Assembly: GCA_032718475.1 (NCBI GenBank)
Contig: JAUCBJ010007108.1
Coordinates: 1-64,000 of the forward strand
Source: Nemertoderma westbladi
Taxonomy: Eukaryota; Animalia; Xenacoelomorpha
Length of the DNA: 64,000 nt
Direction of reading: 5' to 3'
Position 1 is the first letter of the stretch, and each line of letters opens with the position of its first letter. Made by a program: the position numbers and the translations under genes. The notes below the pieces were generated by a model. The model was not told where the DNA came from, made no database searches, and saw nothing but the letters and a program-made list of their open reading frames with translations. This document shows, piece by piece, positions 7,072-56,700 of the stretch.

Positions 7072-8119
7072 TTACTGCCTTAAGCTCTGTACTTCGTTTT
7101 ATATGTCTACCATCTGATCATACCACCCCCAGACCCCACTGCACCCCTACCCACTACCAGTAGCCTTTTTAAGTATAAGTCTTTTTAAACCTATACTGAA
7201 TATGTTTTAAATATTATATTTCACAACACTCAGACACTAGGCCTACATCAGTTTATTTTTTTACCTTTGCAATACAGTAACAAGCTAACAACTACTGAAC
7301 TAGGCCAACTATGACTTACTGTCTGTATCTGACTATGCTGCTATGAAATTCAAATTTGGGGTAAAACAAAAATTTAGAGAATTAACCTAACCTTGTATTA
7401 AATTTGAGGTAATTCCAAAATTGGGTCTATAATTTGAAATTTGAGGTATTCTCAAATTTGATGATCTCCCTGACTGACTTGACTATGGCAGTATGGATCG
7501 ACCGAATTTAAAATTTTGCCGAACCGAACCGAATTTGAAAAAAATTCGGCAATTTTGGTACCGAATAGGCCTACCGAATATTGAACAATTTGACACTACA
7601 GTGCCAAGGTTATAATATTCAGTTTTAAATGTAAATGTAAAAAATTTGTCAAAAAATTCAGTATTTACTAAAAAAAAGAAAGGAGGAAAATCGACTACGG
7701 TACTACTACTGTACTATAAAAACTACGGTTTTTGTGAGTCCATCTAACTCTAACAGAGTGCAGGTGTGACATTCTACTATGCAAATTACCAATAGTACTA
7801 TCTACACGATTTAAATTACACTTGTATTGTTGTATACACGTTTTGCAAGCGTTTCCCACTCCTTTGTACTCTTTTGTACTATTTTTGCACTTTATTGTAC
7901 TCTTTTGTACTATAGGCCTATTGTATATTGTACTACCGGTAGGCTATTTTGTACTTTTTTTGTACAAATTCGTCGGACCCCTATAACCGACAGATCAGTA
8001 TACTGGTATGGTATACCTATCATGTCCTACATTTTCTGTTTTCTGATGTGCATTTATTATTATTGTAGGCCTAATTTATATATCTGTATATTATTATATT
8101 GTTATTATTGATATATATA

Positions 8120-24147: not shown

Positions 24148-25317
24148 TGTTTGCGCTTTTAAGACCTTTGACAGTTTAACCTGCCAAAATTAGAATGTCT
24201 TTTGGATGATAGATAGTCTTTAGCCTATGACGAGTATTTGATACACTACATTAGCTGAAGCCAGTCTATGCGCAATCATTCACCCGCTGGATATACCCGG
24301 GAGACTGAATTCGGAAGCTTAATGATTGATGGTGTAAGCCTACTGTATTATTCGACTGATCGTAATATATAATCTCTGACAAATATTATTCACTTTCGGG
24401 AAATATTAACAGTTCCTTTAGGACGTGGCGCTCTAAATATGTAAACAGAGTTATGACTTAAACTAGACACAACGAAAAGGCTATAGATTCACGTATATGG
24501 CGCATTCTTTAGGAGATGCTTTGTTATCAGTTACACTCATACACAATGCTGCACAATACTGCACACTAATCTGCCGACCTTCACTAAATTTGGTCACGTA
24601 TAAAGAGAGCAACATACAATTTATGTCGGGCATATGAAATAGCATTAGATTCACTTCAAACCACCGTCGCAATCGTTTATCTGTAACCGGTCTCTCTAAC
24701 CTTTAGTATATCAAGAAGATTGGGATGTCGGACTATTGATCAGTATTCCGATATAATATTTCATCAACAAATATAACGAATAACCGACAGTAAAAGCAGT
24801 AAAGTTAAGGTATAAATGATTATTAAGTGAGTGAATTAACTCGGTAACTCGTTTGCATTGGTATGGTTAGGTTAGATAACAGATATACGTTCTATAATTA
24901 AGCCTACTAATGTAAGACTAAAGACTGAAACACGGAGGTGCCAAAAGCCGGTGTTCTTAGGCTCTGGGCAAAAACATAACACTGAATTCCTGAGTTTCTG
25001 TATCCACCTCCAACACAGAGACAAAAAACGCTCTGATTGGTCGACCGAACAACGAGAGAACAAAGAAACAAAGAAATGTCGACGTGGCAATATCAGCTGT
25101 TAGATCATCATGGTAGCGACACTGTTTTCAAGAGTATCGAGCTTATTGCGTCCCGAAATTGCGGATTATGTCCTCTAAAGTACAAATACAGAAGAAATGG
25201 CTTTTATGTCCTCTAAAACACCAGTACAGTAAGGACACGGCCTTTTTATGCCCAGTAAACCAACTACAGAGTACTTTACGGGGAAAATAACCGGCTAATT
25301 ACGCAAAAGCTTTTACA
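24148..25317 (-). repeat. 3' LTR (1170 bp)
   Basis: TGTTTGCGC...GCTTTTACA, direct repeat of 41609-42788 with a few substitutions and small indels. Confidence 0.95.
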
Positions 25318-25395
25318 CCGCTCCCAGAAAATGGGATTTAAGTCTATAAAATATAACAAATCACAGTTTCTAAAATATAAAGATACTCTAAACAG

Positions 25396-28300
25396 TTAGT
25401 CTTTCTTACGCGGACGGCGTTTACGCAGTTTTTTGAGGCTAGTAAGAGTCCTTTTCTCTTTGGGGCGAGCCACTTTACTAGGAGGGCTGTAACTCCTGGG
25501 TGAAGGGTGCAATACAATTGCATCAGAAGGTTTCGGATTGCGATCGGTGTATCCGCCGGTCGAGGTACCTGGTTGATCGATATCAACTTCCGTGGAGCGA
25601 GGTCTAACAGCCTTTAGGGCGCGCCTCAGGACAGCAGCTCCTACGGGTCCTTGACGGGTTGTCTGGGCAATGGCGGTAGGTGGACCGTGAGTGGTGAGAA
25701 ACTTCCTTGGTTTAATAGTTCTTTCCAACTCGCGTTCTCGGGCTCGATATTCGTAGGGCCGTCGAGATACTTCCTGTAACTCAGGGTGCGAGTTGATAAA
25801 TAAATCGCCATACTCAGGGTCTTGACGGATATAATTGATCAAATGGTATGAAGTAATATCGTTAGGATTGACGTTCCTAAGGTATCTTCTAACAAATTTA
25901 GTGGAAATACACTCACCAACACGCTTCATTAGCTCGTAACTCGGTATGCGTGTTTTTTGTTCCACAGACGCTAATAAATAAGGATGGAACGCGTAAACTC
26001 CCTCGTAAGAGCGTCCAGGGTAGTATCGATGACGGGACTCACAGTGTAAATCCGCGTTAGCTTCCCAAGCTCGGATGTAGCGCAGGGTAATCATTTCATC
26101 TACGCTCTCTAAATCGTGATTAAAGGGGCAATTATAACTGGCATGTCCTTTAAGTTGACAGTGGTGGCATTGAGTCATAAATTGGGGGCAGACTGCAAAA
26201 ATATGAGAGTTATTAAGTCTGCAATACGCACAATATATCTCCATCATTGGTTGTTCGTGGAAATAGGAACAGGGTACGTCTGAGTCCATAGGAGTGAAAT
26301 GGTCTCTCGATGCGCATAATCGACAACGTTTTCGAGAAACATAGTTAGCGTGTCGATAATCGTATGCGGTGAGACATTGTGGACCTTGATACCACTCTAA
26401 GACGTAGTCGTTATCGCTGCTCCGGGGCGCTGTAGGCTGAATCGCTTCAGCTTCTAAGCATATTGGTTCATCTTCCAATTGCATAGCTGAGGTAGGTGCG
26501 GCTGTCTCCGCAAGCGGACCCACTGTCTGAACTTCGACGACAGAATAACCCGTGGGTATTCGGGGTCTTTGTATAACAGATGAGTGCAAGTTCTGTATAC
26601 AAACGTCCTGAAAAAGGGCAAATCCCGCGCTGTTTAGCTTCTCCGCCGCTGAGTCTCTCAGGCTGAGTTTGGTCAGAGCGCGGTCCTTGAACTGACTATC
26701 AACGTTACGGAACGGAGTCAGAAAGCGCCTGAAACATTCAAAGCGGATGAATTTATTGTGTTCATCTAACTTGGCGAGTTTGGTTCCAAGTATTAAGGGA
26801 TGGGCGCGTATGGTACGACTGCACACATCGGCTAGCCAACCCGCAAGTGCTGCGTTTTCAAAGATCGTGTATATAGCTAAGGAGGGACGAAGTGGAACAC
26901 TCATAAAGCTATACACGGCTCCAGGTGCGGTCAATGGTCCATCAAAGTATAAACGAGAATAATGATCTCCGTATACTTGTTGGTAATTTATAGGATTTCC
27001 AACCTTGAAATTACTTTGAAAGGCAAGATGTCCGATGGAGGTTCGTTGTACTTTGGTAATTCCGCTGGGTGTATTGGCATACATAGTGCGGAAGAAACCT
27101 CGGCCTTCTGCCCAAGGAGCAATCAGCTGAGTATCAACGAAGGGGTATAGAATGTTCTCCATATTCCGAAAGTCGTTCTGTAGGTCTCCATAAACAGCTG
27201 AGCCGATTTTAAGGATTCCTTCGTTAAACAGCATCTCGAGCACGGGTTGGGGTAACATCGATCCATCGATACCCATGGCCGGCTTGCGCTCGGTGTCGGT
27301 GACGTAACGCTGCGCGAGTTCAAATTGTCCATGTCGGAGTTTCTTTTGTGTCTCAGTAAGAGTTTCAAAAGAATAATCAATAACGTCGGAACACGCTCGA
27401 GTAAATACGTGGGTAGAACCAGCGAGTCCTCGTATGTGTATCATCCGCGTAGTTCCAAGTTCTCCAACCGGAACGCTACCTTCGTTATCGTAAGTGACAA
27501 CTCCATACATCTCGATAACGTTAAGAGTTTCGTTCCACTCTTTAGTGGCGTTTTCGAGTGTCATTCCCACAGGATGCCACAAGGTAGCACATTCGCTAGC
27601 ATTATGCAGGTCTTTATACTTTAAATATTGTGTGGTATATGTTTCCACATCTCCATATCGTTGTATTCTTTCCTCCTCGAATAACACATCAAGATTCCAG
27701 TGCACTAAACGAGTTTTGATGAATCCATCAAGATTATACGGAGGTATTGTTTCTTTCTCTATTCTGGAAACATTATATGGTTTTCGAAATGAGTTTACTT
27801 TAACTAACTGATCCAGATGTTTCTGCAGTTGTTCGAGTTCGACAAGATCGAGAGGATTTATTAACGGTAGAAACTTCGGACTATGTGTAGGATCTTCCGG
27901 TTTTACCATGTAATATTGTTTTAGATTGACGTAATAAGGGTGATCTTTGATCCCATAAAACGAGTCCGGTAAAGGTCTAGCGCGTATGTTTACATCGTGT
28001 ACCATGCGACGGACAAGATCTGCTCTATTGTCCGGAGGTTCAACGAGTATACCATCGACACGAGCGGATTCGATGGGCGGACGCTGCAACAGAGGAGCGT
28101 CGGCGATAAGATCGCGAGATCTTAGGTTGATATCAACCGGTTGGGGTTGTGCCGTCGCAAAAAGTTTGTCTCCGAAATGGGGAACCATCGAGGGATGAAG
28201 AATGGTTTTAGAGTAGAGATCCGTCATAAGGATTTGCGCTTCGGGTTGAGCTAAAGCCGCTTCTTCTCTCTCATCCAGTTCTATATGTCTCTCCTCGAGC

Positions 28301-29640
28301 TGATTCTCCTCCGCTTGTTGTTGTAGACGCTCATCTAGAAACTCTTGTAAAGAGTAGGTTCATCCACGTTCGATGTCCTCCTCGAGATTTTGTATTTCTC
28401 TATCGAACTGGGGTAAAGCTAATTCCTTCACCGCTTGGACTTGTTGCTGCAATTTACGCTTCTCCAAACAATCGTACGTTCCCTTTCCGATTTTCTGCCG
28501 AATAGCGTCTAATGCGTTTCGTACGACGCTCTCTTCGACTTCCGTAACGGGTTGGATAGAGGTGAAGCCGGGACGGTTGTATGGGTTAAACGGCGATATG
28601 AGATGACCACGTCCCAATCCAGCTAGGTAGGGTTGGCGAATGTCTCGTGAGCCTACTACCGGAGTGCCACCGATCAACTGTTCGGGTAACACTAGATCTT
28701 TGAACAGTGAGTACAGTTCGGGAGGATCCGTGATACTATTAGGGTCAAGAGTTTGAGGTCTAACTGAGGAATGCGGAGGTCTGACCGAGTATTCCGGAAC
28801 TCTGATCATCGGTTTGTTCAAGGATCGCTTGAGTCGAGCGACCGCAGGGGACACGTCGAACAGGTTTCGCTCGAAACTCCCGTAAGTATATCGTGTAAAA
28901 CTGTGTTTAGCGCAACGTATCCGCGGATGTTTATGTCTTTCCGTTTGCTGATTGGGTCTAGGGCATTCGTCGCAGTAATACCAAAGACGCATGTCCTGCA
29001 GAGGAAACGCGGGTGATCGTTCTCCAGTTTTACAATATTCCTCCATCTGTTCGAAGCTATCCGGGACGACAGGTAGCGGTCGATCGGCGGTAAGATACAT
29101 CATAGTGAAATAGAGTCGTTTGAGTTCTATCATAGGATCATGATGTATACCTTGAGGATATCGAGTTTCGAGATTTTGTTGACTGGCAATATTGAGGTAT
29201 GTTTCTCTCAAGAATTCCAGATAATCGTTGAAGTCGTTGCGTTTATCCGGCTCTTCAACGTCTTCTCTCTCGAGTCTGTTTCGAATAGAGTTCTCGTGTT
29301 CTATTCTTGGCTTATCGTTCCGATTCCGCTGGGTATGATATTTAAATAAAACCATTTCCCTTTCGGTATCCACATCGTCCGTGTCGTGTAAATCGATAGG
29401 ATGGCCGGTAGTTAAGAAGTCCATATACGTACCATTACGATGCGTATAACGAGCGGTGAACTTTCTATAGTCCAATTCACGCGTAAGTTGCTCCGGGGAC
29501 ATCGGCGGTTCGATATAACGACCATCATCCTCCGTAGTAGTTGGACCAGCGTCGCCGTGTATCAAGCTATCGACAAACGCTTGTAAAGGTAGAGTATATC
29601 GCTCCCTGATACCAAGATCATCTTCTATCAACTCAGTCAT
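25396..29640 (-). CDS. Accessory ORF of the BEL element (~1414 codons, one in-frame TGA at 28362-28360): unknown N-terminal region, DEDDy-like 3'-5' exonuclease, CCHC zinc knuckles, basic tail
   Basis: ORFs 29640-28360 and 28227-25396 are in the same frame with 44 open codons between them; motifs VVTYDNEG, ILKIGSAVYGDL, FVDTQ, PLRPSLAIYTIFE; CAYC-x5-H-x4-CP and CHHC-x4-H-x4-CP; C-terminal KKLRKRRPRKK. Confidence 0.8.
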
Positions 29641-31359
29641 ATCTGCTATGAGTTTATCAATATTATAATGAGTTTATATATATATTAGGCTAGCGGGCGT
29701 CGCTGCCTACCCCTCTTTTGCCCCCGGACAGTGTAAGATCCTCAGCGCCGATGTACCGTCGTCGCTGTGCTTTCGCCAACGATGTAGCTACACAACGACA
29801 ACGATAACCGGCACAAGTCACTTCACTGTCCGTCCCAAAGGCTTAGATGTACTGCAGGTTCTTCTTGGAGAGTTAGGGTTACTTTCACAATTGCGACTCG
29901 CTACTGTAAACACACCTTAGTAGTAACATTCACCTACAAACGCACAAATTCAACACAACTGCAACAAACTGCACACATTCGGGCCATTTGTCCGTTAGTC
30001 AGTACCTTCCAGAATGTCACTGTATTTATTATATATCCTTGGATACTAGCGGTGTGCTATTTATTCCCTATGCTATTCAATGGGGCATGCCTTCTATTGT
30101 TCTTTTAACTCACTTCTAATTCTAGCGTGGTTGTTGCCATGGTGACATTATGGAAAGCTAGCGGTAGAATTAGGGTAATTCTCATGCATACAGATCTGGG
30201 ATGCTATTTAATAGTAATTCTTTAATGGTCAATATCCCCTTTATACATGATTCTATGAATTTTATCGGCTATTGACTATACATTAGAGATTCTCGCACAC
30301 AAATACACTTAATAGAGTGAATCTCCGCTCCCATGATCTATTAATTAATGGAATTTTGGGAATGTTATAAATTGTATAAAATGACAATTTATTAAATTCA
30401 TTGAAATATCTGAATTTAAATTTATTCCCGTAAATTTTATTATTTAATGTTAAATAGACACAATTTTATTCCAGAACGTGTCTGGGGACTGGGATCCTTG
30501 ATTCTAGGAATTTTGTCCTTTTAAGAGTATCGGTAAGTGCTACGATATCTTAATCGACTAGAATTTTAAAGGATCTGATATTTGACAGATTTTTGTAAAT
30601 ATTAATAATTAATATTTAGGATGGGCACCAGTTTATTCCAGAACTTGTCTGGGGACGTTAACCATTGATTCTAGAAATTTGTCTTTCAAGTATATCGGTG
30701 GGTGCCGCGATATCTTAATCGACTAGAATTACAGATGGTCAAAGGGTTTAACAGATTTATTTTGCGTTATACGCTACTGTTAAAGGGACATCACGCTACT
30801 ATATGTATTATTTAATATACGGTATGAGAGCAATATCGCACGAAGCAATGTCAGTGTGAAGAGGCAAGTCGTTTCCAAGGTCTACCCAGAGCTTGGTTTA
30901 GCCGAGACACGAGGATCTGAACTTTGCATTCCTAATACTCTGCCTACCAATAATACTTGAATATAGTAGTGGCTTTATTGTACTTTAATAAGTACGAAGA
31001 TTTCATCTTACTGTAGTCACGTATTGATAATGTAATACGGGCAGTAAGGAAAGAGAAAAAGAATTATTTCTCGCCGTCGCACTAAATATATAATATACGT
31101 AATTAAATAATAAACGCGAATATATATTGCACTAATCTACTAAATAATCTCTAAAATACCATACTACTAAATAAAATTAAATAAAACGATTAAAATAAAA
31201 TTACATAATAATACATACATAAATATAAAAATAAAACAAATACAAATATAAAGTAATATGGTCACACACCCACTCCAGCCGTTGTTAAGTTGGGGAGTCC
31301 CTAGATGTTTGTTGGATTAGGGAGGTGGTCGTGGGAAGAGTATCTTGTCTCCCATAGTT

Positions 31360-33045
31360 TCAGGAGAGTTCTCTGTCTCTTTCCAGTAAACATAAACGTC
31401 CCACTGGGCGATTGAGCTGCTGCGTCTCGAAGACAATTCCCGGTTTCTTGAAGTTACGTCGCATGACGACGAGTTCTACCGATCGCACCAAACCGTCATC
31501 CGAGATGTGCGTCTCGATTATACGACCTGTCTGCCACCGCTTACGTGGAAGATCCACATCCACAATAAGCACCATGTCTCCAGCGCTGACGTTTTCTTGC
31601 TGCGCAAACCACTTAGTTCGAAGTTGTAGCGTGGGCAGATAATGTTTTTCGAAATGGTCAGCGAAACGACGGGATAACAACTGCATGAGTTGCCAAGTTT
31701 GTAGACAGTATTCGTCTCCGTCTGTGATTTCCGATTGTGGGAGCATGGCTACAGGTTTCTTCAGTAGGAAGTGCGCGGGTGTTAGCGCTTCCAGGGAATC
31801 GGGACTCGATGAGACTGGCATAAGCGGTCTCTCGTTGAGATAGGCGGCGATTTCTTCCATTAACGTCCGCAAAAGTTCGTCGGTGAGATAAGCGCGGCAA
31901 GGCACTATAAAATGAAATGCTGTCTTCACACTTCTTATTAATCTCTCCCAACTTCCTCCCCACCAAGGGGCGTCGGCGGCGTTGAAGGTCCAACTAGACG
32001 CTGTTACTCGTAGTTGGTCGTCCACCTGTCTTTGGTTCCAATCTTTGACGTAAGCTTTGATTTCATTGTTGGCACCAATGAAGTTTGTTCCCTTATCAGA
32101 TCTCATCGTGTTACTAGTGCCAAAGCGAGCGATCTGTCGTCGTAAGCTTAATAGAAAGCTGTTGGTAGATAAATCGTTCACCATATCGAGATGGATGGCT
32201 CTACAAGTCATACAAACAAAGATTACACACCATCTCTTGACTATAGTCCTAGCACGATATACTTCAATAGGGCCAAATAAATCCACACCGGTATTAGTAA
32301 AGGGTGGTTCATAAAAGCTTACTCATTCCCTAGGTAATTCTGCCTCTCGCTGTGTTAAAGGCCTACTGAATGCTTTCCTACAGGGTATACAGTTCCTAAG
32401 AACTTGGTTCAGAGCTCTACGGGGTTTATAAAAATAATAGCGAGTTCGAATTTCGCTAAGAACTCGTTCTCTACCAGCATGATAAAGCTTACTGTGAACA
32501 TCTACAATCATCTTGACTTGTATTTCAAGATTTCTAATGAGTATGGGGAACTTAGTATCAAAGGATAATGGGGCATTCGTTAACCTTCCTCCAACACGTA
32601 TCAACCCATCTATCATTGTGCTAGAGAAACGATCCCTTAAGCGCATCTGTGGATTTCTCAACAACAGGAAATACTTATCGGAATCTTCATAGCATTGTAA
32701 GAGTCTCAGCATCTGTTTGTTGGTTTCTTCATGCTCCTGATAACTGATCTTCTCCTTCAGAAACCTGTCGGGTATCTTATATGGGGGAAGATCTTTAATA
32801 ACATGGACCTGCACTGATGTGATTGGAGCGGTATCACCCTTTGTTTTCATCCCAGAGTAGTGATGGTGAAAACATCTCTTTAAATATGTAACGGCCTTAC
32901 AAAGCCGATTCCAGGAACTGTAGTGATGCATCGCTCTCTGCAGAAGAGGTGAGAGTCCTTGCGAGACGTCTGGTATGCCAGATTTCCAATCTTTATCACG
33001 GATTTCCACAATGGGTTTATTTGTGGCTGTGGGTTTCTGATCCAA
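31360..33045 (-). pseudogene. BEL integrase region (HHCC zinc finger, DDE core, DUF5641-like C-terminus), in-frame TGA at 32325-32323
   Basis: HSKLYHAG...CIPC; LPRE*VSFYEPPFTNTGVDLFGP; SDKGTNF; APWWGGSWERLIRSVK; LTPAHFL. Confidence 0.92.
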
Positions 33046-33080
33046 AGCGTCGTCTCCGGAAGTATGTAGTACAGACAGAT

Positions 33081-36000
33081 CTACTGTGGGTTTGAATAAC
33101 TTCGATTTACTCGCCTGAGTTTTAGGCTTGACTTTGCCTGTCTAATTTCTGCTGTAGTAAGATGAGGAGGCCATTCTTCTTCTTCTTTGTAGAGGAAGTC
33201 GGGTCCACCTAACCAGTCTGGAGTATCTACCAGTTCTTGTGGAGTTGCTCCCCTGGAAGCGATGTCTGCTGGATTAATCGTTCCGGGGCAATGTCTCCAT
33301 TGATCCATCGTCGTGCGACTGAGTATAATAGCTACTCTGTTGGTAACGAAGACACTGAACTGACAGACTTCATTGGTTATATACTCCAACACGAGTAAAG
33401 CGTCGGTCCAATAGACAGTTTTCTCCAGGGGATAGTCTATCTGTTCTGTTACATTCCGGCCGATGGCTGTAGCGTATAGAGCCGCTTTTAACTCCGCTCG
33501 AGGAACTTTCAACTTGTTGTTTATCAATGCCTTAGAGGTAACCAAGGCGACTTTGATTCCGTCCGGAGTTTCCACCCTTAGGTAGGCTACTATACCGATT
33601 CCCATATCGCTGGCGTCTCCAAACACATGGAGTTGATATGAATACGTAGGGAGAACATGACCAAAATATGAACGGGAAATTATAAAGTTTTCGATGGCTG
33701 GTAGAGAATCTTCCCATTTCATCCACTTCTTTAATAATTCTCCCTTAAGTGGATCGTCCCATGAGTGGTTTTCAAGCCACATTTGTTGTACTAAACTCCG
33801 AGCAATCAATATAACTGGGCTAATAAATCCCAATGGATCGAAATAAGTGCTCAGGATACTTAAACAAATCCGTTTAGTCCGAACTGGATTATCTCGCTGT
33901 TTTAATTGGAAAAACAGGATATCTCTTTCTGTGTCCCATTTCAAACCAAGGGTCTTAGTTTCTGGGAGATCATCCTTTATTAGATCTAGGTCTTTTGTTC
34001 CTCGATCTTCTACCGGGATCGACTCCAGAAACTCACGGGAGTTGCTAGTGAATTTAGTTAATCGAAATCCTCCTTTCTTTAAGCATTCTACCGTTCCTTT
34101 AGCGACCTCAATGGCTTCTTCGACTGATGGAAGGGACTTCAGATTATCGTCCATGTAGATGTCTCGTTTGATATTGTCGATCACTTCTTTAGAGAAGGCG
34201 CCTCGGTTGTCATCCGCAGTGGTGCGCACCACGGAACAGGCGTTTGAAGGGCTCGAGATTATACCAAAGGCTTGGATGGTCATCCAGTACTCAACAGGTT
34301 TCTTATTGAGGTCTCCTTCAGGCCACCACAAAAATCGTAGGCTATCTCGATCCCTATCCAGCGCTTTGACTTGTAAGAACATGCCTTCTATATCTGAGGC
34401 GAAAGCAATGGAGTATTGTCTTAATCTTAATAGTATTCCCAACAAGGATTGGAGTAAGTTGGGTCCGGGTAACAATTCAGAATTAAGAGATTGACCCATA
34501 TAAAGGGCGGAACCGTCAAACACCACTCGTACTTCATGGGGTTTACCGGGTTTGGGAATGTAATGGTGAGTTAAGTAATACGTTCTCTCAGTTATAGGGG
34601 TTTCTTCCGGTACTAGCTCCGCATATCCCTTGCTAATAAACTTCTTCAACTGTGTTTGATACATTTCTTTAGCTGAAGAATTTGCCGTAAGGCGTCGATG
34701 TAGTTGAGCAATTCTTTTCTCTGCCAAAGGTCTGTTGTTAATGAACTTTGGTTCTCGCTTTCGGAAAGGAAGACCGATCTCATATCTACCTTGATCTTTA
34801 AGAAAACGAGTAGTTGTCGCTTGGATCTGCTTGGCTCTTTCTTCCTCCACTGATAGGGCCTTATCGTAGGAGTTGGGCTCTACAACCTCTTGAGTAAAGA
34901 ATCTTACGGCGTGTTCATCCCGAGTCTTGGCATTATAACGTTCAATGACGTCATTAAGCTCGTCGTTATAGTCGTCTCGCTCGGATGGGAGAAGTAGTTG
35001 GCATAAGTTCACTTGATTTTGCCAAGTCTCGCTTTCCTTAAGGAGATCGATGGCATTCTCCTCATCGAAGAGTTGATGTATATCGTCGTTGTCTGAGGAG
35101 TATGGAGTTCCCTCAGTTGGATCGTCGAACTCACTGTTCTCAACTTCCCATTCTCGCACTTGATATACCTGATCTTTAGGTAATCTTTCCATGAGAGTTC
35201 TACGGGAAGGGCCAGTAAAGTACCAACCTACTCTAGTTCTTACCGCATAGGTTTGTAGTGGCTGCGGTTGAGCAGGCCGTTTCTCCAATGTCTCGAGCGC
35301 CTCATGCGCGTTTTGGCCGATGAGTATTTGTACTCCAGGATAATCAGTCTGGAATCGAGGTATCTTAAGATGTTGGATGCTCTCATCCTCGTCCCAATTA
35401 TAAAGGTCTGCTTGAGTAGTAGCGAAGTTCTTTATAGCCACCATTTTCACTGACCTTATACTATGTTCTCCTAGTTCGTCCTGGGGGGTGGACAACGCAC
35501 CTACATAATAATCCGCTGTTACTGTAGATTTCCAAACCTGCATAATTCCTGACATGTTTAGCTTAGTTCGGAACTTGGGTTGTCCAGCGAATATGTCTTC
35601 GGCTAGCTCTTTGTCGATGAATGTTCCTGTACTACCGGAGTCAAGGAGGGCGTTCACTAGATAACTCCTTTTTGGTCCGTGGACCCTTACCTGTACCACA
35701 GGAAATTCTCTAATCCCTACATTGGAAGTTGGCGCTTTCCAAGATGGTTGTCGATCAGAAGTAGTTAGAGCGAGGTCAATGTCTGTATCTTTTTCATAAA
35801 TGAGTGCTCGATACACTGTGGTATTTATCATGTAACAGGATTCGTTTTCGTCGGAGAACTCGTCCGTATAGAATCCTTCCATCTCAGATTGATCAGTGTC
35901 GTTCACATCACTGAATTGGACATGTAGTTCGGAATCACTTACCTGACTCGGACTATTTCGCTCAAATTCAGTGTGCAACAAGATATGATGTTTCGCACCG

Positions 36001-37589
36001 CACTTGGCACATCTTGTGTCAGAGTAACAGGTTCGCCGTTGGTGTCCATGTCTGAGGCAATTATAACACAACCGCTTATCCCACATGACTTCACGTCTCT
36101 CAGTTAATGATTTCTTTAGAAATTCATCACACATATTTAAGCGATGGGTCCCATCACATAGCGCACATTTCGGTTTGATGTTACTTACCTTACTCTGAGT
36201 AATATTGTGTACACTTGTCTTTTCTTCTGGCTTTCTCACCTGAATTCTCTTGGGAGACGTAGGAGGAGTTTTTCTTACCTGTTCTCTCCTGTCATTGGTT
36301 CGAGACTTGAATTTACTTACCTGATCTTTAGGCATTTTATTGACATAATAAGATCTGTCAGTGTCTTTCCCGCTATCCTCTCCTTGAGAAGTCTGGCTTT
36401 CGCCGTCGTCTGTATAACACACTGGTGTTACCTTTCTCCTAGAGACGGGTTTTTCACTTACCTTGTTTTCCGGTGTCTTCTCTCTGGACAGTTTCAGGAG
36501 CTGTAATTTCACTTCTCCATCTAGGAATGACATGAGATCAGCCATGGTAGGGTCTCGTCGTTGTTGTTCCATCATATATAACACTTTCTTATCCCAGCGT
36601 GTACCTACTCCACCCTTCGGTAAAGTAGAAGCCACTGCTCTAATAACCATAGCACTCTGATACTCATGAGACTTACCTAGCCAATCTAATTGTCTGCAGA
36701 TCTCCTGAATCTCATCGGAAAACTCTATAATTCCGCTGCTAATAAACTTTCGGGGCGCTACTAACTTTGCATACAAATACCCAGCTATGTTATTCCTATT
36801 ACCATACCTGATGTTTAGTGTATCCCAAACTTGTCTTAATCCGTCTGGATGTCCAATAAACTTTAACGCCATTAACTTGGGAGATCCTTCCAAGCACTCG
36901 ATGAGGAATCTAAGTTTCTCTCCATTAGAAAGTACAGAGTTCTGTATGTTATCTTTGTAATATTCATTAAAAGGTAACCATTTCATCTCATCTCCATTGA
37001 ACTTGACGATCTCTCCCACCTTTACCGCTTGCCGGGCTTCGGTTCTAGCCATTTGACGCGTAAAACTTTCTTGGGCCATCGTGTTATTTAATATCGAGTT
37101 ATCGGTATATAAATTTCTCGGATTATGATCCGTTCTATAGGGAATATCATTATCAACAGGTCTATAATTACCCTTAATAGGGTTCACTATAGGAGTTTCT
37201 ACCTCGCTAGCAGTATAGATGCGTGTAGGCTCCACACCTTGCGCATGAGATACTTCAGACCTAACAGGTTGACACATTGTTACAGGGGGTGGTGATATAC
37301 CCCTTTGTGTATTTACTAATTTATCGCGTTCTAGCGCGATACTTTGCTGCACTTCTTGCAACTCTAACCTACTTTCCCTTACTGTGCCCTTGAATTGCTG
37401 AACAGTCTCCTGCATCTGTCCGAGCAGGAGATCCATCCCCCGTCGTCTCTCATCCACCCATTCGACCGCCGAAGCGGGATTCGCCAACGTTGTAGCGGGA
37501 GGACGAGGGACAACGGGCGACAAATCTTGAATATTTCGCTGTTGTGCTGTTCTGCTGGGCACAGGTAGCTTGGACTGTGCAATGGGAAT
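33081..37589 (-). CDS. BEL gag-pol core: DUF1759-like gag, three zinc knuckles, aspartic protease, RT, RNase H; frameshifted relative to both neighbours
   Basis: KFNGDEMKW..LSNGEKLRFL; CALC/CYNC/CAKC knuckles; ALLDSGS; RVVFDGS, DIEGMFLQ, YMDD; LHVFGDAS, PRAEL, WTDA, NPADIASRG. Confidence 0.95.
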   Translation of the reverse strand: MPIAQSKLPVPSRTAQQRNIQDLSPVVPRPPATTLANPASAVEWVDERRRGMDLLLGQMQETVQQFKGTVRESRLELQEVQQSIALERDKLVNTQRGISPPPVTMCQPVRSEVSHAQGVEPTRIYTASEVETPIVNPIKGNYRPVDNDIPYRTDHNPRNLYTDNSILNNTMAQESFTRQMARTEARQAVKVGEIVKFNGDEMKWLPFNEYYKDNIQNSVLSNGEKLRFLIECLEGSPKLMALKFIGHPDGLRQVWDTLNIRYGNRNNIAGYLYAKLVAPRKFISSGIIEFSDEIQEICRQLDWLGKSHEYQSAMVIRAVASTLPKGGVGTRWDKKVLYMMEQQRRDPTMADLMSFLDGEVKLQLLKLSREKTPENKVSEKPVSRRKVTPVCYTDDGESQTSQGEDSGKDTDRSYYVNKMPKDQVSKFKSRTNDRREQVRKTPPTSPKRIQVRKPEEKTSVHNITQSKVSNIKPKCALCDGTHRLNMCDEFLKKSLTERREVMWDKRLCYNCLRHGHQRRTCYSDTRCAKCGAKHHILLHTEFERNSPSQVSDSELHVQFSDVNDTDQSEMEGFYTDEFSDENESCYMINTTVYRALIYEKDTDIDLALTTSDRQPSWKAPTSNVGIREFPVVQVRVHGPKRSYLVNALLDSGSTGTFIDKELAEDIFAGQPKFRTKLNMSGIMQVWKSTVTADYYVGALSTPQDELGEHSIRSVKMVAIKNFATTQADLYNWDEDESIQHLKIPRFQTDYPGVQILIGQNAHEALETLEKRPAQPQPLQTYAVRTRVGWYFTGPSRRTLMERLPKDQVYQVREWEVENSEFDDPTEGTPYSSDNDDIHQLFDEENAIDLLKESETWQNQVNLCQLLLPSERDDYNDELNDVIERYNAKTRDEHAVRFFTQEVVEPNSYDKALSVEEERAKQIQATTTRFLKDQGRYEIGLPFRKREPKFINNRPLAEKRIAQLHRRLTANSSAKEMYQTQLKKFISKGYAELVPEETPITERTYYLTHHYIPKPGKPHEVRVVFDGSALYMGQSLNSELLPGPNLLQSLLGILLRLRQYSIAFASDIEGMFLQVKALDRDRDSLRFLWWPEGDLNKKPVEYWMTIQAFGIISSPSNACSVVRTTADDNRGAFSKEVIDNIKRDIYMDDNLKSLPSVEEAIEVAKGTVECLKKGGFRLTKFTSNSREFLESIPVEDRGTKDLDLIKDDLPETKTLGLKWDTERDILFFQLKQRDNPVRTKRICLSILSTYFDPLGFISPVILIARSLVQQMWLENHSWDDPLKGELLKKWMKWEDSLPAIENFIISRSYFGHVLPTYSYQLHVFGDASDMGIGIVAYLRVETPDGIKVALVTSKALINNKLKVPRAELKAALYATAIGRNVTEQIDYPLEKTVYWTDALLVLEYITNEVCQFSVFVTNRVAIILSRTTMDQWRHCPGTINPADIASRGATPQELVDTPDWLGGPDFLYKEEEEWPPHLTTAEIRQAKSSLKLRRVNRSYSNPQ

Positions 37590-39427
37590 TTAGAGGTAGG
37601 TTCAGGGAGTACAGGTGTCTCTACCACCGAAAGGGTGGCTTCGGGAACAGGCCTAATTATTTCAGGCTCATCTACTATAGTAGGGAGTCTTTCTATTGTA
37701 ATTATTTGGTCTGTGGGTTCTGTACTACCTACGTTGGTGTTATTTAGTTGCCTTCTAACAGCTGGGGGCAAATCAGGCAATTTCTGACGGTGGGCCATTC
37801 TTTTACGTCTGCTTAGGCGAGATCGATTTCCTCCGCCTTCAGTGTCGGTGGTATCGCCTTCCTCAGATGATGTATAACCTTGTCTTTTGGGAGTAGATCG
37901 ATTCATCATCTGCATATTACTAGCTGTTAACTGTTTATTAAAGTTGTCTTGTCTCTCTTGAAGATTTTCCAACTCTAGTTGGGTTGTCTCTTCAGATGCC
38001 CTCCGTTCTGCTTCTGCCACTGCTATTTTTCTTTCCGCTTCGGCCGCCTTTCTTTCCGCTTCTGCTGCTGCCACTTTTCTTTCCGCTTCGGCCGCCTTTC
38101 TTTCGGCTTCTACTGCTGCAGCTGCCGCTTTTGCCTCTGCCGCTGCCACTTTTGCCTCTGCCGCTGCCTCTGCCGCTTTTCTATCCACTTCTGCCGCTTT
38201 TCGTTCCGCTTCTGCCGCTGCCACTGCCGCTGCTGCTGTCTTTCTATCTTCTATACGTTTTTTCTTTACTTGTTCTTCTTGAACCTTAGCGATGCGGATG
38301 CTTTCATTGAATTTAGCTTGGTTCGCAGCTAACCTATCCACATCGATTGTGTCCAACACACTCTGGGCTCCTTCACTATTAGGGCTAAGTCCATCTAACC
38401 TTCTCCTCAACTCTTCATCACCTAAAAAACGTTGATAGTCTGACAGATAGATGTCAATGGCATCCCTCTTATGCGGCTTCTCTGCCGTCGCTTCACTTTC
38501 CACTTGGGAAAAAGTAGCGTCTGTTGATTCTCCATGGGTTGAGCGCTCCTCCAGCTGAGCTTTCCACTGAGCCGTTCCTTGAACCTGGAGACTCACCCGT
38601 TGAAACCAAGTCTTTACGGCAACTTGCAACGACGTGTCTTGTCTTCTTTTAGAAGCCTCCTCAAAGGCCGATAAGATTAGCCTAATTCGCAGAATTCTTT
38701 CTCTAACTTGATAAAGCAGTTGTCCCTGCTCTTGAGGTCCTTGAGGTTGTTGAAACAGTTGTTCTTTTACTCGCTCCATAGAGTTGAAGAATCCCTGGGC
38801 GTATCCGGCTGCGGACCTCTTCCATACAGCTGGATCGATGGTTTCCTTGGCTACTCCCATCCGGTGTATGTCTTCCCAGGCAGCTTCTGATAAATCAAAC
38901 GGGAGTCCGGGTCCGGGGAAGTTCCATTGCGACTCGACCATAGACTTCAGTTCTTCCCTTGTGTATCCCTCATAACTATCTTTAGTTGATCGCTTACTTC
39001 TCGCCCAATCGATCTGGTGTTCTTCCACCGCAATCAATAACCTAGTGAGTACGGCTGCAGGAAGGATGAGAAGGGGATCCGAATAAACTGCATCCGTCAT
39101 CCTTGCTTCGCGCTTGGGTGTCAGCTCTACAGTATCCTCACTACTGGAGCTGTCGGGCCGCTGAGAAATAAGTTCTTGGCTCGCGGGTTGTTGCTGTTCC
39201 GCTGCTTCTTGGTCCCGCTTGACCTGGGCTCGAGTGCCTATGATAGACCTATGATGTTGGACCAGCCTCGGTTCTGTTATTACTACTGGAGGGATGACTT
39301 TCCTAACAGTGGGAGGTGAACTGAACTTAGGTGTAGACGGTTCTACACCCTTATCTGAGTCGCAGATAGTTACATCTAATAAACTGTCTGACATGTTCTG
39401 CTTAGTATCAGACATGTTTGTTTGCAC
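37379..39427 (-). CDS. Long N-terminal gag extension of the BEL element with Ala/Glu/Lys coiled-coil repeats
   Basis: 682-codon ORF overlapping the gag-pol frame (which opens at 37589); AAEAERK repeats at ~38010-38240. Confidence 0.75.
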   Translation of the reverse strand: MQTNMSDTKQNMSDSLLDVTICDSDKGVEPSTPKFSSPPTVRKVIPPVVITEPRLVQHHRSIIGTRAQVKRDQEAAEQQQPASQELISQRPDSSSSEDTVELTPKREARMTDAVYSDPLLILPAAVLTRLLIAVEEHQIDWARSKRSTKDSYEGYTREELKSMVESQWNFPGPGLPFDLSEAAWEDIHRMGVAKETIDPAVWKRSAAGYAQGFFNSMERVKEQLFQQPQGPQEQGQLLYQVRERILRIRLILSAFEEASKRRQDTSLQVAVKTWFQRVSLQVQGTAQWKAQLEERSTHGESTDATFSQVESEATAEKPHKRDAIDIYLSDYQRFLGDEELRRRLDGLSPNSEGAQSVLDTIDVDRLAANQAKFNESIRIAKVQEEQVKKKRIEDRKTAAAAVAAAEAERKAAEVDRKAAEAAAEAKVAAAEAKAAAAAVEAERKAAEAERKVAAAEAERKAAEAERKIAVAEAERRASEETTQLELENLQERQDNFNKQLTASNMQMMNRSTPKRQGYTSSEEGDTTDTEGGGNRSRLSRRKRMAHRQKLPDLPPAVRRQLNNTNVGSTEPTDQIITIERLPTIVDEPEIIRPVPEATLSVVETPVLPEPTSKFPLHSPSYLCPAEQHNSEIFKICRPLSLVLPLQRWRIPLRRSNGWMRDDGGWISCSDRCRRLFSNSRAQ

Positions 39428-40759
39428 AGTTGAATGCCTACTGCTATATTACAGTCCAAGCAAGTCTAGTAATTCAGTATTAACTGCTAGCCTAGTAATT
39501 AATTACCGATACTGCTACTCAGTGTAGCGTGATATATATAATATTAGAATACCGGTATGCTTATGGTATATATAAGTATTATTACAGACTAGGTTTTTCA
39601 CAGAAACCGGTATATAATTTTAGCACAAATATATATAAATATATAATAGGCCTATCGTGGATACCGGTATGCAGTTTACACTTATAGTATATATAAGTAT
39701 AATTATTAACTAGAATTAATTACAGAATACCGGTATGATTTCAGCCTAAGTTTATGAAATAAATATAATAAGCCTATTGTAAATACCGGTATGTCAATTA
39801 TTTTAGAATAATTGAATTTCTGAATTTTAAGGGTTACTTGGTTACTTTAACTTACTTTATTACCGTTATTTGAGCAGTAGTCCAACTGATATTGAGACCT
39901 AATTGTTATATGGCAGGCCTACTATTTATAAATCGTTTGAGTTGATTTATAATATATATATACCCGTTTAATGGGTTTTGTCAATGTTTGAAATAAATGT
40001 TATTATTTCTGGGGGAGTCACTACACATAAGCAGTGCGCTCTCAGTGGAGCGCTACTTGTTAGACACTAAAACAAATAATTCTAATTTACCTAAGTTACT
40101 TAATACTACAAATTACATACAATTCGGGTTGAGATTACAATCTCTAAATAAACACAAAATTTTAATGACAAATACACAAATACGAAATTTTTAGGGTAAT
40201 TTTACAAGAAGTCTACTAACCAGCCTAACAAAGGGTTAGAATATCTGGTTATTACAACGGACAGGTTACTACGGTATTTGAAAATAATAAGTAGTAGTAA
40301 ATATACTGCGCTGTCCAGATAGGAAAAATACCACCGCCTGACGACCTATAACCGTATCGCTATAGGTACTACGTTATGTATCACGGAGTGTCCCTACCTA
40401 GAAGTTAATTACCGCGGTCTACCAGAACCAACGTGCCTATTAACCACTTTACAACACAAATACACTGCCTACACACTAATTGCTTTCGGAAAGCACTGTA
40501 CACTAAACCCTAAATTAGGTACAAGTACTTGTATAACAAATAATCAGTAGTTAAAAATACTTGAACAGCCAAAAGAACCACGGTATCTGCCGGAGTGACC
40601 AAAGCACAAAATCTCCAGTCTTTACCTACGCCGAGCAGCCCTGATGTAGTACCGGGGTTAGTTTAACTATAACGGTATGTATAACAAACACAATTACTGT
40701 AGGAATAAACTTGGGGAATGAATGTTGCGAATAATAGCATAAACTCTGAATAATAAATA

Positions 40760-41330
40760 TTACGCTACGCGTACAAACTACTCAAACAAAATGCAGACCA
40801 AATACTGACAGACTACTATCAAGCCTAAACAAACTACGGTATATGCAGACTCCGAAATGATTAGTTAGTATGCGTTCTAACCCAGTAGTACGACTTATTC
40901 TTTCACAGGGGGTTTACCTCACAGCGCTTGAAGCCCCTACTTTCCTAACTTAGCACTTTATCGCACAGATGCTCTACACACACCGAAATTTCCTCAAACC
41001 CAACAACAGCCAGACAACTATCCAGCCTACAAATTATCTAAATAAAATTATACGCTACCCGTACAGACTACACAAACAAAGTACAGAGCAAACGCTGGCG
41101 GACTCCTATCAAGCCTAAATAAACCACAGGACATGCAGTCTCCGAAATGGTTAAGTAGTATGCGTTCTAACCCAGTAGTACGACTTATTCTTTAGATGGG
41201 GGTTTACCTTACAGCTATGGCTGCCCCTACTTCCTAACCGTTCTTTATCAGACATACACTCTACATGCACTGCAATCCGTTCAGACCTAATCAACAGTTA
41301 GCCAACAGTCAAGCCTTCAAATTATCTGTA
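40760..41330. repeat. Two diverged ~290-bp tandem copies in the 5' leader of the BEL element
   Basis: TACGCTAC..TATCAAGCCTAAA..TCCGAAATG..AGTATGCGTTCTAACCCAGTAGTACGACTTATTCTTT occurs from ~40761 and again from ~41051. Confidence 0.8.
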
Positions 41331-41597
41331 CAATCTGAGCAGGCTTACACGCCTTCTGCTCAATACTGGCCTACAAATAAATAAAACTGACAGAAATAAG
41401 TAAGCTCCAAAAGAAACAAGGGGTGTACAGTCCCTAATCTCTTAAACAGCCTACCGGTATACAATACCACAATCGAATAATACTGTTGTACCTGTACTGT
41501 AAGTAAGTACCGGTCCGGATGATCAGGCAGTCAGGCCTACTGGTTACCGGTCGACCGGTACTTTCGACTAGATTGCTTACACCGCAATCCAGAAGCA

Positions 41598-41608
41598 ATA
41601 TCTGTTAT
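41598..41608 (-). promoter_or_regulatory. Putative primer-binding site, non-tRNA, complementary to LTR 42355-42345
   Basis: Minus-strand ATAACAGATAT directly abuts the 5' LTR end, with no TGG at the junction; exact reverse complement ATATCTGTTAT lies in the LTR on the same strand. Confidence 0.6.
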
Positions 41609-42788
41609 TGTTTGCGCTTTTAAGACCTTTGACAGTTTAACCTGCCAAAATTAGAATGTCTTTTGGATGATAGATAGTCTTTAGCCTATGACGAGTATTT
41701 GATACACTACATTAGCCGAAGCCAGTCTATGCGCAATCATTCACCCGCTGGATATACCCGGGAGACTGAATTCGGAAGCTTAATGATTGATGGTGTAAGC
41801 CTACTGTATTATTCGACTGATCGTAATATATAATCTCTGACAAATATTATTCACTTTCGGGAAATATTAACAGTTCCTTTAGGACGTGGCGCTCTAAATA
41901 TGTAAACAGAGTTATGACTTAAACTAGACACAACGAAAAGGCTATAGATTCACGTATATGGCGCATTCTTTAGGAGATGCTTTGTTATCAGTTACACTCA
42001 TACACAATGCTGCACAATACTGCACACTAATCTGCCGACCTTCACTAAATTTGGTCACGTATAAAGAGAGCAACATACAATTTATGTTGGGCATATGAAA
42101 TAGCATTAGATTCACTTCAAACCACTTAACATAGGTCGCAATCGTTTATCTGTAACCGGTCTCTCTAACCTTTAGTATATCAAGAAGATTGGGATGTCGG
42201 ACTATTGATCAGTATTCCGATATAATATTTCATCAACAAATATAACGAATAACCGACAGTAAAAGCAGTAAAGTTAAGGTATAAATGATTATTAAGTGAG
42301 TGAATTAACTCGGTAACTCGTTTGCATTGGTATGGTTAGGTTAGATAACAGATATACGTTCTATAATTAAGCCTACTAATGTAAGACTAAAGACTGAAAC
42401 ACGGAGGTGCCAAAAGCCGGTGTTCTTAGGCTCTGGGCAAAAACATAACACTGAATTCCTGAGTTTCTGTATCCACCTCCAACACAGAGACAAAAAACGC
42501 TCTGATTGGTCGACCGAACAACGAGAGAACAAAGAAACAAAGAAATGTCGACATGGCAATATCAGCTGTTAGCCGTCGTCATGGTAGCGACACTGTTTTC
42601 AAGAGTATCGAGCTTATTGCGTCCCGAAATTGCGGATTATGTCCTCTAAAGTACAAATACAGAAGAAATGGCTTTTATGTCCTCTAAAACACCAGTACAG
42701 TAAGGACACGGCCTTTTTATGCCCAGTAAACCAACTACAGAGTACTTTACGGGGAAAATAACCGGCTAATTACGCAAAAGCTTTTACA
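41609..42788 (-). repeat. 5' LTR (1180 bp)
   Basis: Direct repeat of 24148-25317; minus-strand CCAAT at ~42505 and Inr-like TCAGT at ~42395. Confidence 0.95.
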
Positions 42789-53732: not shown

Positions 53733-56700
53733 TAGTGGGGTCGCTTAAGGTGAAAATCGTTAATTGCCGGACAAAAGCATGAAAATATGACTATATATGT
53801 AAAAAAATGTGTAGATTAATCTGAGCCTGTGTACCAAAAAAATTGACTACTTCCCTAGCAACAGAGTGACTTTTACATAGCAACCGGGTAAAATTGGTCA
53901 TTTCTGTTATTGAAACTCACCATATACAAAAATTACGATTATATAACTGGTTTAGTTTATAATATAAGTCTGTAGACGTTTCCATAGCAACAAGGAGACC
54001 TTTACCTAGCAACCGCTCTATATTTAATGGAATTATGATTGAAACTTGGGATAATCAACCTGACTAGCAATAGAAGATGGTTAGTGATGACATAGGCGCT
54101 GATACACGTTTCCTTAGTAACCGGGGACCTTTCCCTAGCAACCGCTGTATATTTAATGAAATTATGATTGAAACTTGGGATAATCAACCTGTCTAGCAAT
54201 ATAAGATTGTTAGTAATAACATTGGCGCTGATACACGTGTCCATAGCAACAAGGTGACCTTTCCCTAGGAACTGCCTGAAATTTAGTGTAATTAATATTG
54301 GAACTGGAGATAAACAGCATTTATAGCAATATAAGATGGTTAGTAGTTATATTGGAGCTGTGATGCACGTTTCCATAGAAACAAAAGGTGAATCATATGT
54401 GATCAATAACAAGAGCAAGTGCATGTGCATAATTCTGTGCATTTAAACCCAGCCTTCCCACACTTGCAGTTTGTGCAATTGCGCTTTTTGGATGCGCATT
54501 TAATGAGTTCGTGGCACATCGTTGCAGCATCTGGCAGTGAGCTCCAGACGGGATTCCATTGAGTATTAAATACCCAACCGAAATCTGCTGGTGAAGGGAG
54601 TATCGGTTTGTCCTGTGTGCAGACTGCCCAAACGCTGGCTTGATATGTAGCCCGCATCACATGTTGGTAAAGGGCGTGTTGAGTTGGTGGCAAGCGATCA
54701 ATCACGCAGTTGCGTTTGGTGAATAGATCCCATCCCGTCTTGTATTATTTATACTCGTTCTGTTTGATTTTTTGTCATGCATACGTATAATAAATTTTTC
54801 CAACGCTTTGAATTCTACACTTTCGATTCCATATGGGAAGGGATTAAATGGCTGATCGTATACTGCCTTGAAAGTTGATGTGATTTCTGGCATGGCCAAC
54901 CAAGTTTTCCAAGCAGTTATTTTGCCAATATTTCTGAAGTGGGACACGGTGTCACAGCCACTAAGGACATGGAACATCAATAAACCCTTTGATTTGTCCT
55001 CACCTAACTTTTGGGATATATTATTCACATTAAAATATTTAAAATGTTTTCCAGAACCGAATGCTAACCATATGTTCAGACTGGGATGATTGGATATTAA
55101 ATAGAAGTGAACTCCGATCAGTATTACTAAAACGTCTGTATCACCTGTGCGCACAATGATATTTGTAGCCCCCATTGACAATGCATGCTGTATGTGTATT
55201 ATAATGCGGGTGTCAGCTTCTTCGTGTGAGCAATTTCCCATAATGGTGCCTCGACTATCCTGACAGAGCACATCTTCTTCCAATGTTGAGTAAATATATT
55301 TCCCTTCTGGGTATTTTTCTAGAATAATTGATTTGGATAAGTAGTTGAACAACTCGTTTTTATTATTAGAGTTCCTTAAGAAATCCATCCAATTTGCTGG
55401 AATTTTGGTTTTATCCTTAATGTTAACTTGGTTTCCACTACCACGTAAGTTTCTGATACCCATTTTCAAGCTTTCATGGCAGTATCTGTCAAAAACAAAG
55501 TCAACCCTGTCAGAATTGTTCAATTCGTGCTTTATATGAGGTATTATTTTATTAGTTAAATAGTCTTGTATGGTGGAACATCCTATAGGTCGAAGGCAAT
55601 GAACTATGAAAGGTGCATCAAAGACTTTAGCATGGAAATACTCAGGGACATCAACACTATATGTTATATCAAAAACCTTTAATATGTCAGATTTAGTCCC
55701 ATAATTGATGTCACCATACTGTAAAAGAGAAGGTGGATAAGGGTGGTTCTCATGAGCAAAGAAGACAGACGGATCTCCTTTTCGGGTTTGATTTGCAATA
55801 AAGAGTTTTCCAAACAATGATGCGTCGGATCGAACCTCAGACATGCGTTTGTTCTTTACATTAGAGAGTCTAGGCGATTTAAAAGTTGGAAACGAGTTGG
55901 ATTTAATGACATCTTTGAACGGCCTTACATTATTAACTAAAACATCAGTTACAAAATTAGTATATTGTTTCTTGCCACATGCTTCAATTTTACTTATGGT
56001 ATTAACTACAGAGTCAGCAGCATATGCTTGACTTGGTATCAATATGAGTTTGTCAGATTTTGAAATAAATGGGTTACCGTGTTCCTTAATGGTAATTACC
56101 AGATTATTGACATCATTTTGAAATGACTTTTGGAAAGCTATCGTTTCTTCATGGTGTTTTTTATCTGTGAGTTACAGATTTGTTCTTGACTCTATTGTTG
56201 TCTCGAATTTGCCAATCAATCTAGCAAATTCTGGTCCGGCTAAGAGCCACCTTCGAAATCCTGCTTCATTCTCAGTAAGATCAATCACACCACCACCACC
56301 ACCACCACCACTACCTTTAACTTTTTCATTTTCCTGTTCATGAGCTTGGTCGAAGGGAATAGCTGAGAAACGTCGACTTGACTTCGATGCAACCCAATTT
56401 CCTTTATTAAACACTTCGAATATGGTTTGTGGGAGAGACTTCATATCTAACAGAAATACACTTACCCATTGACTGTAGTGGTAATGGTCTAAACTAAAAA
56501 AGTAAACAACTAGAGTCTCTAAACAACTTATGAATAGTTGGAAATTTTTCTCTCTGTGAGCTCGAATAAATACTAGAAATAGCCTCTGAATTCTCAAAAT
56601 GAAGTCGTAGAACTGAAAGGTTGGATGCTCTGTTGCCATTAAGTCTCTCCAGTCTGAAAATGAATAACTATCAATGTGATTTGTATTACCATAGCTGGGT

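Follow-up and report, generated by a model that had tools for sequence, protein, structure and literature searches.

In the stretch of Nemertoderma westbladi DNA analysed here (positions 1 to 64,000 of contig JAUCBJ010007108.1, referred to as the window), we identified a BEL/Pao LTR retrotransposon whose primer-binding site (PBS) has an 11-nt complement within its own LTR. This complement is confirmed as a real feature of the element. As judged from the sequence, it is highly probable that the element primes its own reverse transcription in some form, and it probably does so in cis, by an uninterrupted, intron-less primer that would lie within the RNA at 42345-42355.

Structure of the element

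The element was described as BEL/Pao in the initial annotation, and its Pfam domains bear this assignment out. Its parts are as follows.

24148..42788, (-) strand: whole BEL/Pao LTR retrotransposon, 18.6 kb, within satellite; pol is broken in the window copy
41609..42788, (-) strand: 5' LTR, 1180 nt, with TGT...ACA ends
24148..25317, (-) strand: 3' LTR, 1170 nt
25318..25325, (-) strand: polypurine tract GGGAGCGG, short
37379..39448, (-) strand: upstream ORF, 689 aa from stop to stop, overlapping the next ORF in a different frame
33081..37589, (-) strand: Gag-Pol ORF, 1502 aa, with DUF1759, aspartyl protease (weak), RT motifs and Peptidase_A17 (Pao)
31360..33141, (-) strand: integrase region in two pieces, with H2C2 finger, core and DUF5641
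25396..29673, (-) strand: 3' accessory frame in two parts (437 and 987 aa) with one stop between them, weakly supported

The paired LTRs with TG...CA ends (98.6% identity between 5' and 3' LTR), the polypurine tract and a 5-nt target-site duplication with one mismatch (ATATC/ACATC) are hallmarks of BEL/Pao elements; the insertion site is a 22/31/53-nt satellite. The Gag-PR-RT-RH-IN order is present, and the Pfam set is of the BEL/Pao type, with DUF1759, Peptidase_A17, DUF5641, an integrase zinc finger and a weak match to aspartyl protease. A chromodomain gave no Pfam match in the element, and its pol is not that of a Ty3/gypsy chromovirus. The best protein relatives are BEL/Pao polyproteins with 38-44% identity, whose hosts, where named, are marine invertebrates, and in a tree of the RT-RH region, which holds no named references, all near rows are of the BEL/Pao type. 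Near 33100 the integrase region changes frame, and near 32323 it is broken by an in-frame stop. A Pfam search with the 689-aa upstream ORF matched nothing. The 2.2-kb leader of the element contains a 290-nt tandem duplication at 40745-41327, the copies of which are 78% identical.

The second part of the 3' accessory frame contains a 3'-5' exonuclease-like stretch at about aa 275-515, tentatively assigned, as well as CCHC knuckles. The frame matched a 3'-5' exonuclease cluster of the atlas (0.92, 159 shared features), 50% of whose members carry PF01612, and P0121, the closest relative of the 987-aa ORF (E 3e-05), carries a faint DNA_pol_A_exo1 match together with a CCHC knuckle. The 987-aa ORF itself gave no match in Pfam and none in a word-based search, and a structure predicted for the exonuclease-like region from a single sequence reached a pLDDT of 31, too low for use. 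The accessory product could trim RNA 3' ends.

Other features of the window were noted alongside the element. A second LTR start on the (-) strand (1-141), about 70% identical and belonging to a sister family, leaves the window before its PBS or 11-mer. At 8075-14128 on the (+) strand, a 2017-aa stop-to-stop ORF without intron contains Nipped-B C-terminal and cohesin HEAT domains and is either an NIPBL/Scc2 retrogene or a very large exon. ORFs of 184-489 aa at 20570-21943 (-) and 54702-57789 (-) had no Pfam match. Inverted-repeat (MITE-like) elements, with 129-nt tandem units common to the sites, are located at 196-833, 5962-7071, 53733-54391 and 60056-60539.

The PBS and its complement in the LTR

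41598..41608, (-) strand: PBS position, ATAACAGATAT, flush with the 5' LTR and without TGG
42345..42355, (-) strand: candidate self-primer, ATATCTGTTAT, the exact complement of the PBS
24876..24886, (-) strand: 3' LTR counterpart of the candidate primer

The observations on which self-priming had first been proposed were confirmed on rereading. The 11 nt following the 5' LTR (41608-41598) lack a TGG at the boundary; their exact complement is present at 42355-42345 and 24886-24876, once per LTR and nowhere else in the window; and the match is exactly 11 nt long and flush against the LTR end. With no TGG at the LTR boundary, an 18-nt tRNA PBS of the ICTV type is absent, and a PBS that is complementary to the element's own LTR RNA and abuts the LTR is the arrangement of Tf1/sushi elements. 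The caveats raised at the outset hold as well: the 11-mer is AT-rich (duplex energy with the PBS -10.5 kcal/mol), the loop between primer and PBS measures 736 nt, compared with 45-219 nt in 11 spliced relatives (see below), and no clear TATA box lies upstream, the only TATA-like match being at 41832, downstream of the 11-mer.

In dinucleotide shuffles of the LTR, a flush complement of at least 11 nt arose in 19 of 20,000 cases, or in 56 of 20,000 when offsets of 0-3 were allowed. Outside the element, 30 of 90,342 positions have a complement of at least 11 nt in this LTR; inside it, 5 of 16,261 do. A chance match in an AT-rich LTR, conserved just as part of a promoter, is therefore to be weighed against a chance of about 0.1-0.3% at this fixed position; it would also leave the element without any primer site, and the same relation between PBS and LTR recurs in relatives. 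The internal positions that reach 11 nt speak for it, as does the pattern of conservation described next, and we consider it highly improbable.

42344..42420, (-) strand: conserved LTR block in family contigs, ending 1-2 nt beyond the primer
42260..42343, (-) strand: hypervariable stretch just 3' of the primer, the predicted end of strong-stop DNA

The family is highly abundant in contigs of four public runs, in which 331, 85, 14 and 1 contigs aligned to the region 42300-42420; contigs do not equal element copies, and the substitutions listed exclude differences near contig ends. At a threshold of at least 1%, substitutions were listed solely at 42383 and 42385 and none within 42345-42355. Single contigs differ inside the 11-mer, in X3 at 42352 and in X5, which is from another organism, at 42350. 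Among the contig ends listed, loose ends begin before 42343/42344 in X1 and X4, that is 1-2 bases past the 11-mer, and the summed depth in X1 drops twentyfold, from 153,364 at 42345-49 to 7,605 at 42335-39. The conserved block extends at least 40 nt upstream of the primer, so that promoter constraint could account for the conservation of the 11-mer. Within this block, an Inr-like TCAGTC at 42397-42392 is a possible transcription start. Further upstream, a second Inr-like word (42454-42449) and a CCAAT box (42509-42505) can be read as promoter motifs.

Relatives with predicted junction-built and uninterrupted primers

Relatives were collected from metagenomes (80 loci) and from a genome collection (24 loci, L081-L104, GTDB); a scan of viral contigs found none. 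The 24 GTDB loci are prokaryote genome records with animal-type BEL/Pao sequence, most likely host contamination of bins. For 24 of these 104 loci the LTR pair by itself gave both LTR ends, and 21 relatives were analysed, L021, L053 and L080 being left out because the whole LTR was not delimited.

In most relatives the best uninterrupted complements of the PBS were short, but they lay directly behind a pyrimidine tract and AG. Once the complement was allowed to be divided between a donor and an acceptor, these short matches were completed. With strict, canonical splice sites, the PBS of 13 of the 21 relatives pairs with 10-15 Watson-Crick bases solely across a predicted exon-exon junction in the LTR; the 13 include the near-duplicates L054/L060 and L042/L098 as well as sister families. 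Neither the 436 swapped unrelated PBSs nor the 3,300 random ones gave a single junction complement of this kind. Between L088 and L090, two pairs are changed in a compensated way, on both sides of the duplex, and their swapped PBSs fail. Four more relatives fit the junction model on inspection, L073 with one G-U pair, L084 with one mismatch, and L026 and L055 after the LTR end was reset. An uninterrupted complement is present in three (L045, 12 nt; L064, 11 nt; L049, 10 nt), and the remaining one, L100, has a tRNA site with TGG. Among the 24 loci with readable LTR ends, a TGG site was found only in L080 (56-80) and L100 (7503-7520); we take both sites to be of the tRNA-Tyr type.

Hand-set LTR ends gave further uninterrupted cases in L019, L046 (11 nt) and L069 (15 nt); the match in L059, at an offset of 6, was not counted. 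A junction scan with a free LTR end returned matches of at least 10 nt in 31 of 82 real and 26 of 246 shuffled cases, and the extra matches from this noisy scan were kept as leads only. The single contig of L064 carries an LTR end whose acceptor precedes the second half of the primer (1-326) and another LTR with the uninterrupted primer (6693-7103). The two are 88% alike, which suggests intron-bearing and intron-less forms within one family, in an assembly that may mix copies.

The initial annotation had named missing complementarity in related families as evidence against self-priming. The complementarity is present there, with different letters, and since the PBSs of the relatives are self-complementary in sequences of their own, the predicted self-priming signature of the window element is more strongly supported than before.

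Its proposal that the RNA starts at 42355, as in Tf1, looks doubtful. The paired stretch of the junction-type relatives closes the first exon, and 7 of 16 relatives have TATA-like boxes at a distance of 51-148 nt upstream of the junction, which indicates that the primer is probably internal and not the start of the RNA. A start at 42355 is not required for the self-priming reading. The LTRs of all 16 relatives examined for it contain exactly one AATAAA or ATTAAA each, always downstream of the 3' end of the primer, and neither hexamer occurs in the 6,747 nt upstream of the primer in these relatives; a motif scan of the 5' LTR of the window element found neither.

The window element could itself be of the junction type, with the following acceptor.

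41637..41655, (-) strand: possible 3' splice site CTAAT...GGCAG/GTTA, which would give a 10-nt junction primer with the weak donor at 42349

A 709-nt intron from donor 42349 to acceptor 41641 would join ATATCT to GTTA, pairing 10 bases with the PBS at an offset of 1, and the 11-mer would be uninterrupted merely because donor and second exon both start with GTTA. The position of the donor 437 nt into the LTR and the split of 6+4 resemble the relatives, as do the onset of hypervariability right after donor position +6 and the branch-like CTAAT before GGCAG. However, the donor TCT/GTTATC, the only matching one, agrees with the consensus at 3 of 9 letters, whereas donors of 13 relatives agree at 6-8 of 9, and the strict junction test gives the window element a score of 0, its complement being uninterrupted. 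A fold of the spliced model gave poor pairing, no more than 0.02 for the half in the second exon, and the last 28 nt hold no canonical poly(A) hexamer, compared with one in 16 of 16 relatives. No such joint was found among the joints listed for family contigs, which are 15 of 17, and with 16 acceptor-like sites, one beginning with GTTA is not rare. A junction primer in the window element is thus unlikely.

Priming by half of a host tRNA, by an organellar tRNA or by some other small RNA, at the PBS or at the TGG at 41591-41589, with a secondary role for the LTR match, appears quite unlikely. It would agree with the ICTV description of BEL/Pao as tRNA-primed (PMC8742986) and with half-tRNA priming in Copia lineages, as given in the accessible part of PMC6317226, and L080 and L100 retain a TGG site, one of them nested among junction-type elements. 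Against it, the TGG of the window element is 17 nt from the LTR within a predicted hairpin, and the PBS letters of the relatives vary, tracking their own LTR and not one common RNA. ARAGORN found no tRNA gene in the element and Rfam returned one chance-level match only, hence there is no sign of a tRNA-like primer encoded by the element.

Predicted RNA folding

41952..41989, (-) strand: LTR-internal competitor of the PBS for the primer region, predicted for RNA starts upstream of about 42360
41785..41819, (-) strand: U5 arms of predicted U5-leader helices flanking the PBS

In predicted folds, primer and PBS pair at about 0.65 when the RNA starts at 42355 and at 0.00 when it starts at 42365 or upstream. 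The competing helix has 15 bp, formed by the primer region with 41989-41983 and 41959-41952. This loss of pairing is a serious objection to an internal primer that folds back in cis, even for a program unable to show crossing helices. The best helix overall is the U5-leader helix of 41819-41806 with 41483-41470 (14 bp), which beats 200 of 200 shuffles. The U5 arm 41802-41785 has two possible partners, 41589-41575 (9+5 bp) and 41352-41340 (13 bp), and a further flanking helix joins 41736-41731 to 41617-41612. By our own reading of loose contig ends, family variants at the U5-leader helices keep or improve pairing. In 17 relatives such helices are not enriched, none falling under 9 of 100 shuffles. 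The folds of spliced relatives are mixed, with a mean pairing of 0.58-0.92 in 7 of 11 and of 0.00-0.09 in the other 4.

A downstream intron from 42078 to 41641, whose removal takes the competing helix away, was also modelled. Pairing of primer and PBS then reached 0.89 for a start at 42395 and 0.43 for a start at 42452, and two other acceptors gave 0.00-0.39. This intron was rejected because an intron downstream of the cut vanishes from the progeny in one cycle; moreover, whatever deletes the competitor would raise the pairing.

The same primer sequence might instead act in trans, a short or processed LTR transcript, for example from solo LTR copies, annealing to the PBS of uncut genomic RNA. 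Such priming would need no 736-nt loop, would escape competition from the internal helix, would draw on a family that is very abundant in contigs, and would also account for intron retention in relatives. On the other hand, primer and PBS co-vary element by element in the relatives, and in every case their poly(A) signal is found downstream of the 3' end of the primer, which cleavage in cis predicts and priming in trans does not need. We regard priming in trans as very unlikely.

Proposed mechanism

In the favoured reading, with an uninterrupted primer acting in cis, transcription would start upstream of the primer, at the Inr-like words around 42395 or 42452, leaving the primer internal with a 5' tail. 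The stretch 42355-42345 would fold back onto the PBS at 41608-41598, the site being kept open by the U5-leader helices, and a cut just past 42345 would free a 3' end for reverse transcriptase. The cutting enzyme may be the element's own RNase H; in Tf1, the primer is freed by RNase H. Strong-stop DNA would then copy 41609-42344, through U5 and R up to the cut, and jump to R at the 3' end of the RNA. An end and a jump at 42344 would explain the abrupt variability just beyond the primer. The transfer needs an R that reaches past the cut, which matches the poly(A) hexamer downstream of the primer in 16 of 16 relatives.

In most relatives, the primer would arise only once the LTR intron has been spliced out. 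As this intron lies upstream of the cut, progeny can take it from the unspliced 3' LTR copy, and if both LTR copies were spliced, intron-less progeny with an uninterrupted primer would result. The window element would represent this intron-less state, either through loss of the intron or as a deep branch that never had one.

Tree placement and origin

In the tree (39 of 99 rows kept as representatives, SH-aLRT support only, no named reference elements), all junction-type rows and the TGG-bearing L080 fall into one 34-row group (support 90); the window element, whose branch is long, lies outside it. Uninterrupted-primer forms occur in at least four separate places among the junction-type elements. 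L080 groups, with weak support, with the junction-type L003/L021, and this nested position implies a reversal or more than one origin. Because identity to the closest proteins is no higher than about 44% and the branch is long, the evidence from the junction-type clade bears indirectly on the window element. An independent origin of self-priming in this lineage, as first suggested, looks doubtful: the trait occurs across the neighbouring BEL clades, for the most part in its splice-junction form. For the uninterrupted primer of the window element, the tree is equally compatible with the loss of an intron, with an older state and with an origin of its own.

As a tentative and rather doubtful proposal, a large part of the BEL/Pao elements of marine invertebrates may have replaced tRNA priming by a primer that the spliceosome assembles from an LTR intron, so that only spliced RNA is copied. 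The window element, giant and exonuclease-bearing, would then be the deepest self-priming branch and would keep the uninterrupted, Tf1-like primer from before the intron.

Comparison with known systems

If the reading given here is true, self-priming of the Tf1 type arose in a third LTR superfamily, and most relatives couple priming to pre-mRNA splicing, a link that is absent from the literature searched. Such elements would be immune to control by tRNA fragments, yet dependent on splicing. A missing PBS would turn into a testable rule, by which the PBS is complementary either to an exon junction in the LTR or to the intron-less product of such a junction and the poly(A) signal lies downstream; this rule can correct LTR annotation and predicts transcript start, splice and cut sites. 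The literature searched, which was largely open-access, contained no BEL/Pao self-priming or splice-built primer, and the novelty of both is provisional. A term search of the BEL/Pao papers PMC554778, PMC3118150 and PMC6238403 found no mention of PBS or tRNA, and the accessible parts of PMC8220671, PMC5408684 and PMC5443660 contained nothing on priming.

The ICTV profile of the Belpaoviridae describes tRNA priming from an 18-nt PBS for host tRNA-Arg or tRNA-Gly, genomes of 4.2-10 kb and a replication that it calls poorly understood (PMC8742986). The window element resembles this family in LTRs of about 1.2 kb, in a gag-pol with protease, RT, RNase H and integrase in this order, in Pao-specific Pfam domains, in the polypurine tract and in an extra 3' ORF; in contrast, it has no 18-nt tRNA PBS and is 18.6 kb long (PMC8742986).

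The 3' accessory ORF with 3'-5' exonuclease-like motifs recalls the DEDDy exonuclease ORF3 of the bdelloid LTR elements Juno and Vesta, as described in the available part of PMC5408684. These belong to other lineages, however, and the assignment in the window element is weak (0.92, 159 shared features, no Pfam match) and without a link to priming.

According to the sections available of PMC6317226, PMC4600332, PMC10085805, PMC5445492, PMC6934838 and PMC3601003, Tf1/sushi elements have been described as self-priming, and Tcn1 and TAR are predicted to be so. For plant Tcn1 (gypsy) and TAR/Houba/Osr-1 (copia) it was inferred from sequence alone, as here, and self-priming has thus already been proposed outside Tf1/sushi; these elements differ in superfamily and host, and no splice-built primer was found for them in the part of the source seen (PMC6317226).

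The closest parallel in priming is to Tf1, Tf2, Tj1 and the Tf1/sushi chromoviruses (Ty3/gypsy), which likewise have no tRNA site and an 11-nt stretch of LTR RNA complementary to an LTR-abutting PBS. The Tf1 pretzel, as far as the available text of PMC10085805 describes it, has two PBS-flanking duplexes with LTR sequence downstream of the primer, and these are possible in the window element as well. Its flanking helices are predicted with a crossing topology as in the three-duplex pretzel of Tf1, and one of them beats 200 of 200 shuffles; they are not enriched in the relatives (n=17), and helices that cross as in a pretzel are beyond what the folding program can draw together. Unlike Tf1/sushi, the window element has BEL/Pao enzymes, no chromodomain match and a 736-nt loop, its primer is probably internal instead of the first bases of the RNA, and the primer of most BEL relatives spans a predicted splice junction, which is undescribed in the portions of the Tf1/sushi literature searched. 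Since BEL/Pao membership rests on the enzymes, the missing tRNA PBS marks a variant. The window element would work like Tf1 in self-priming but is a BEL/Pao variant and not a member of Tf1/sushi.
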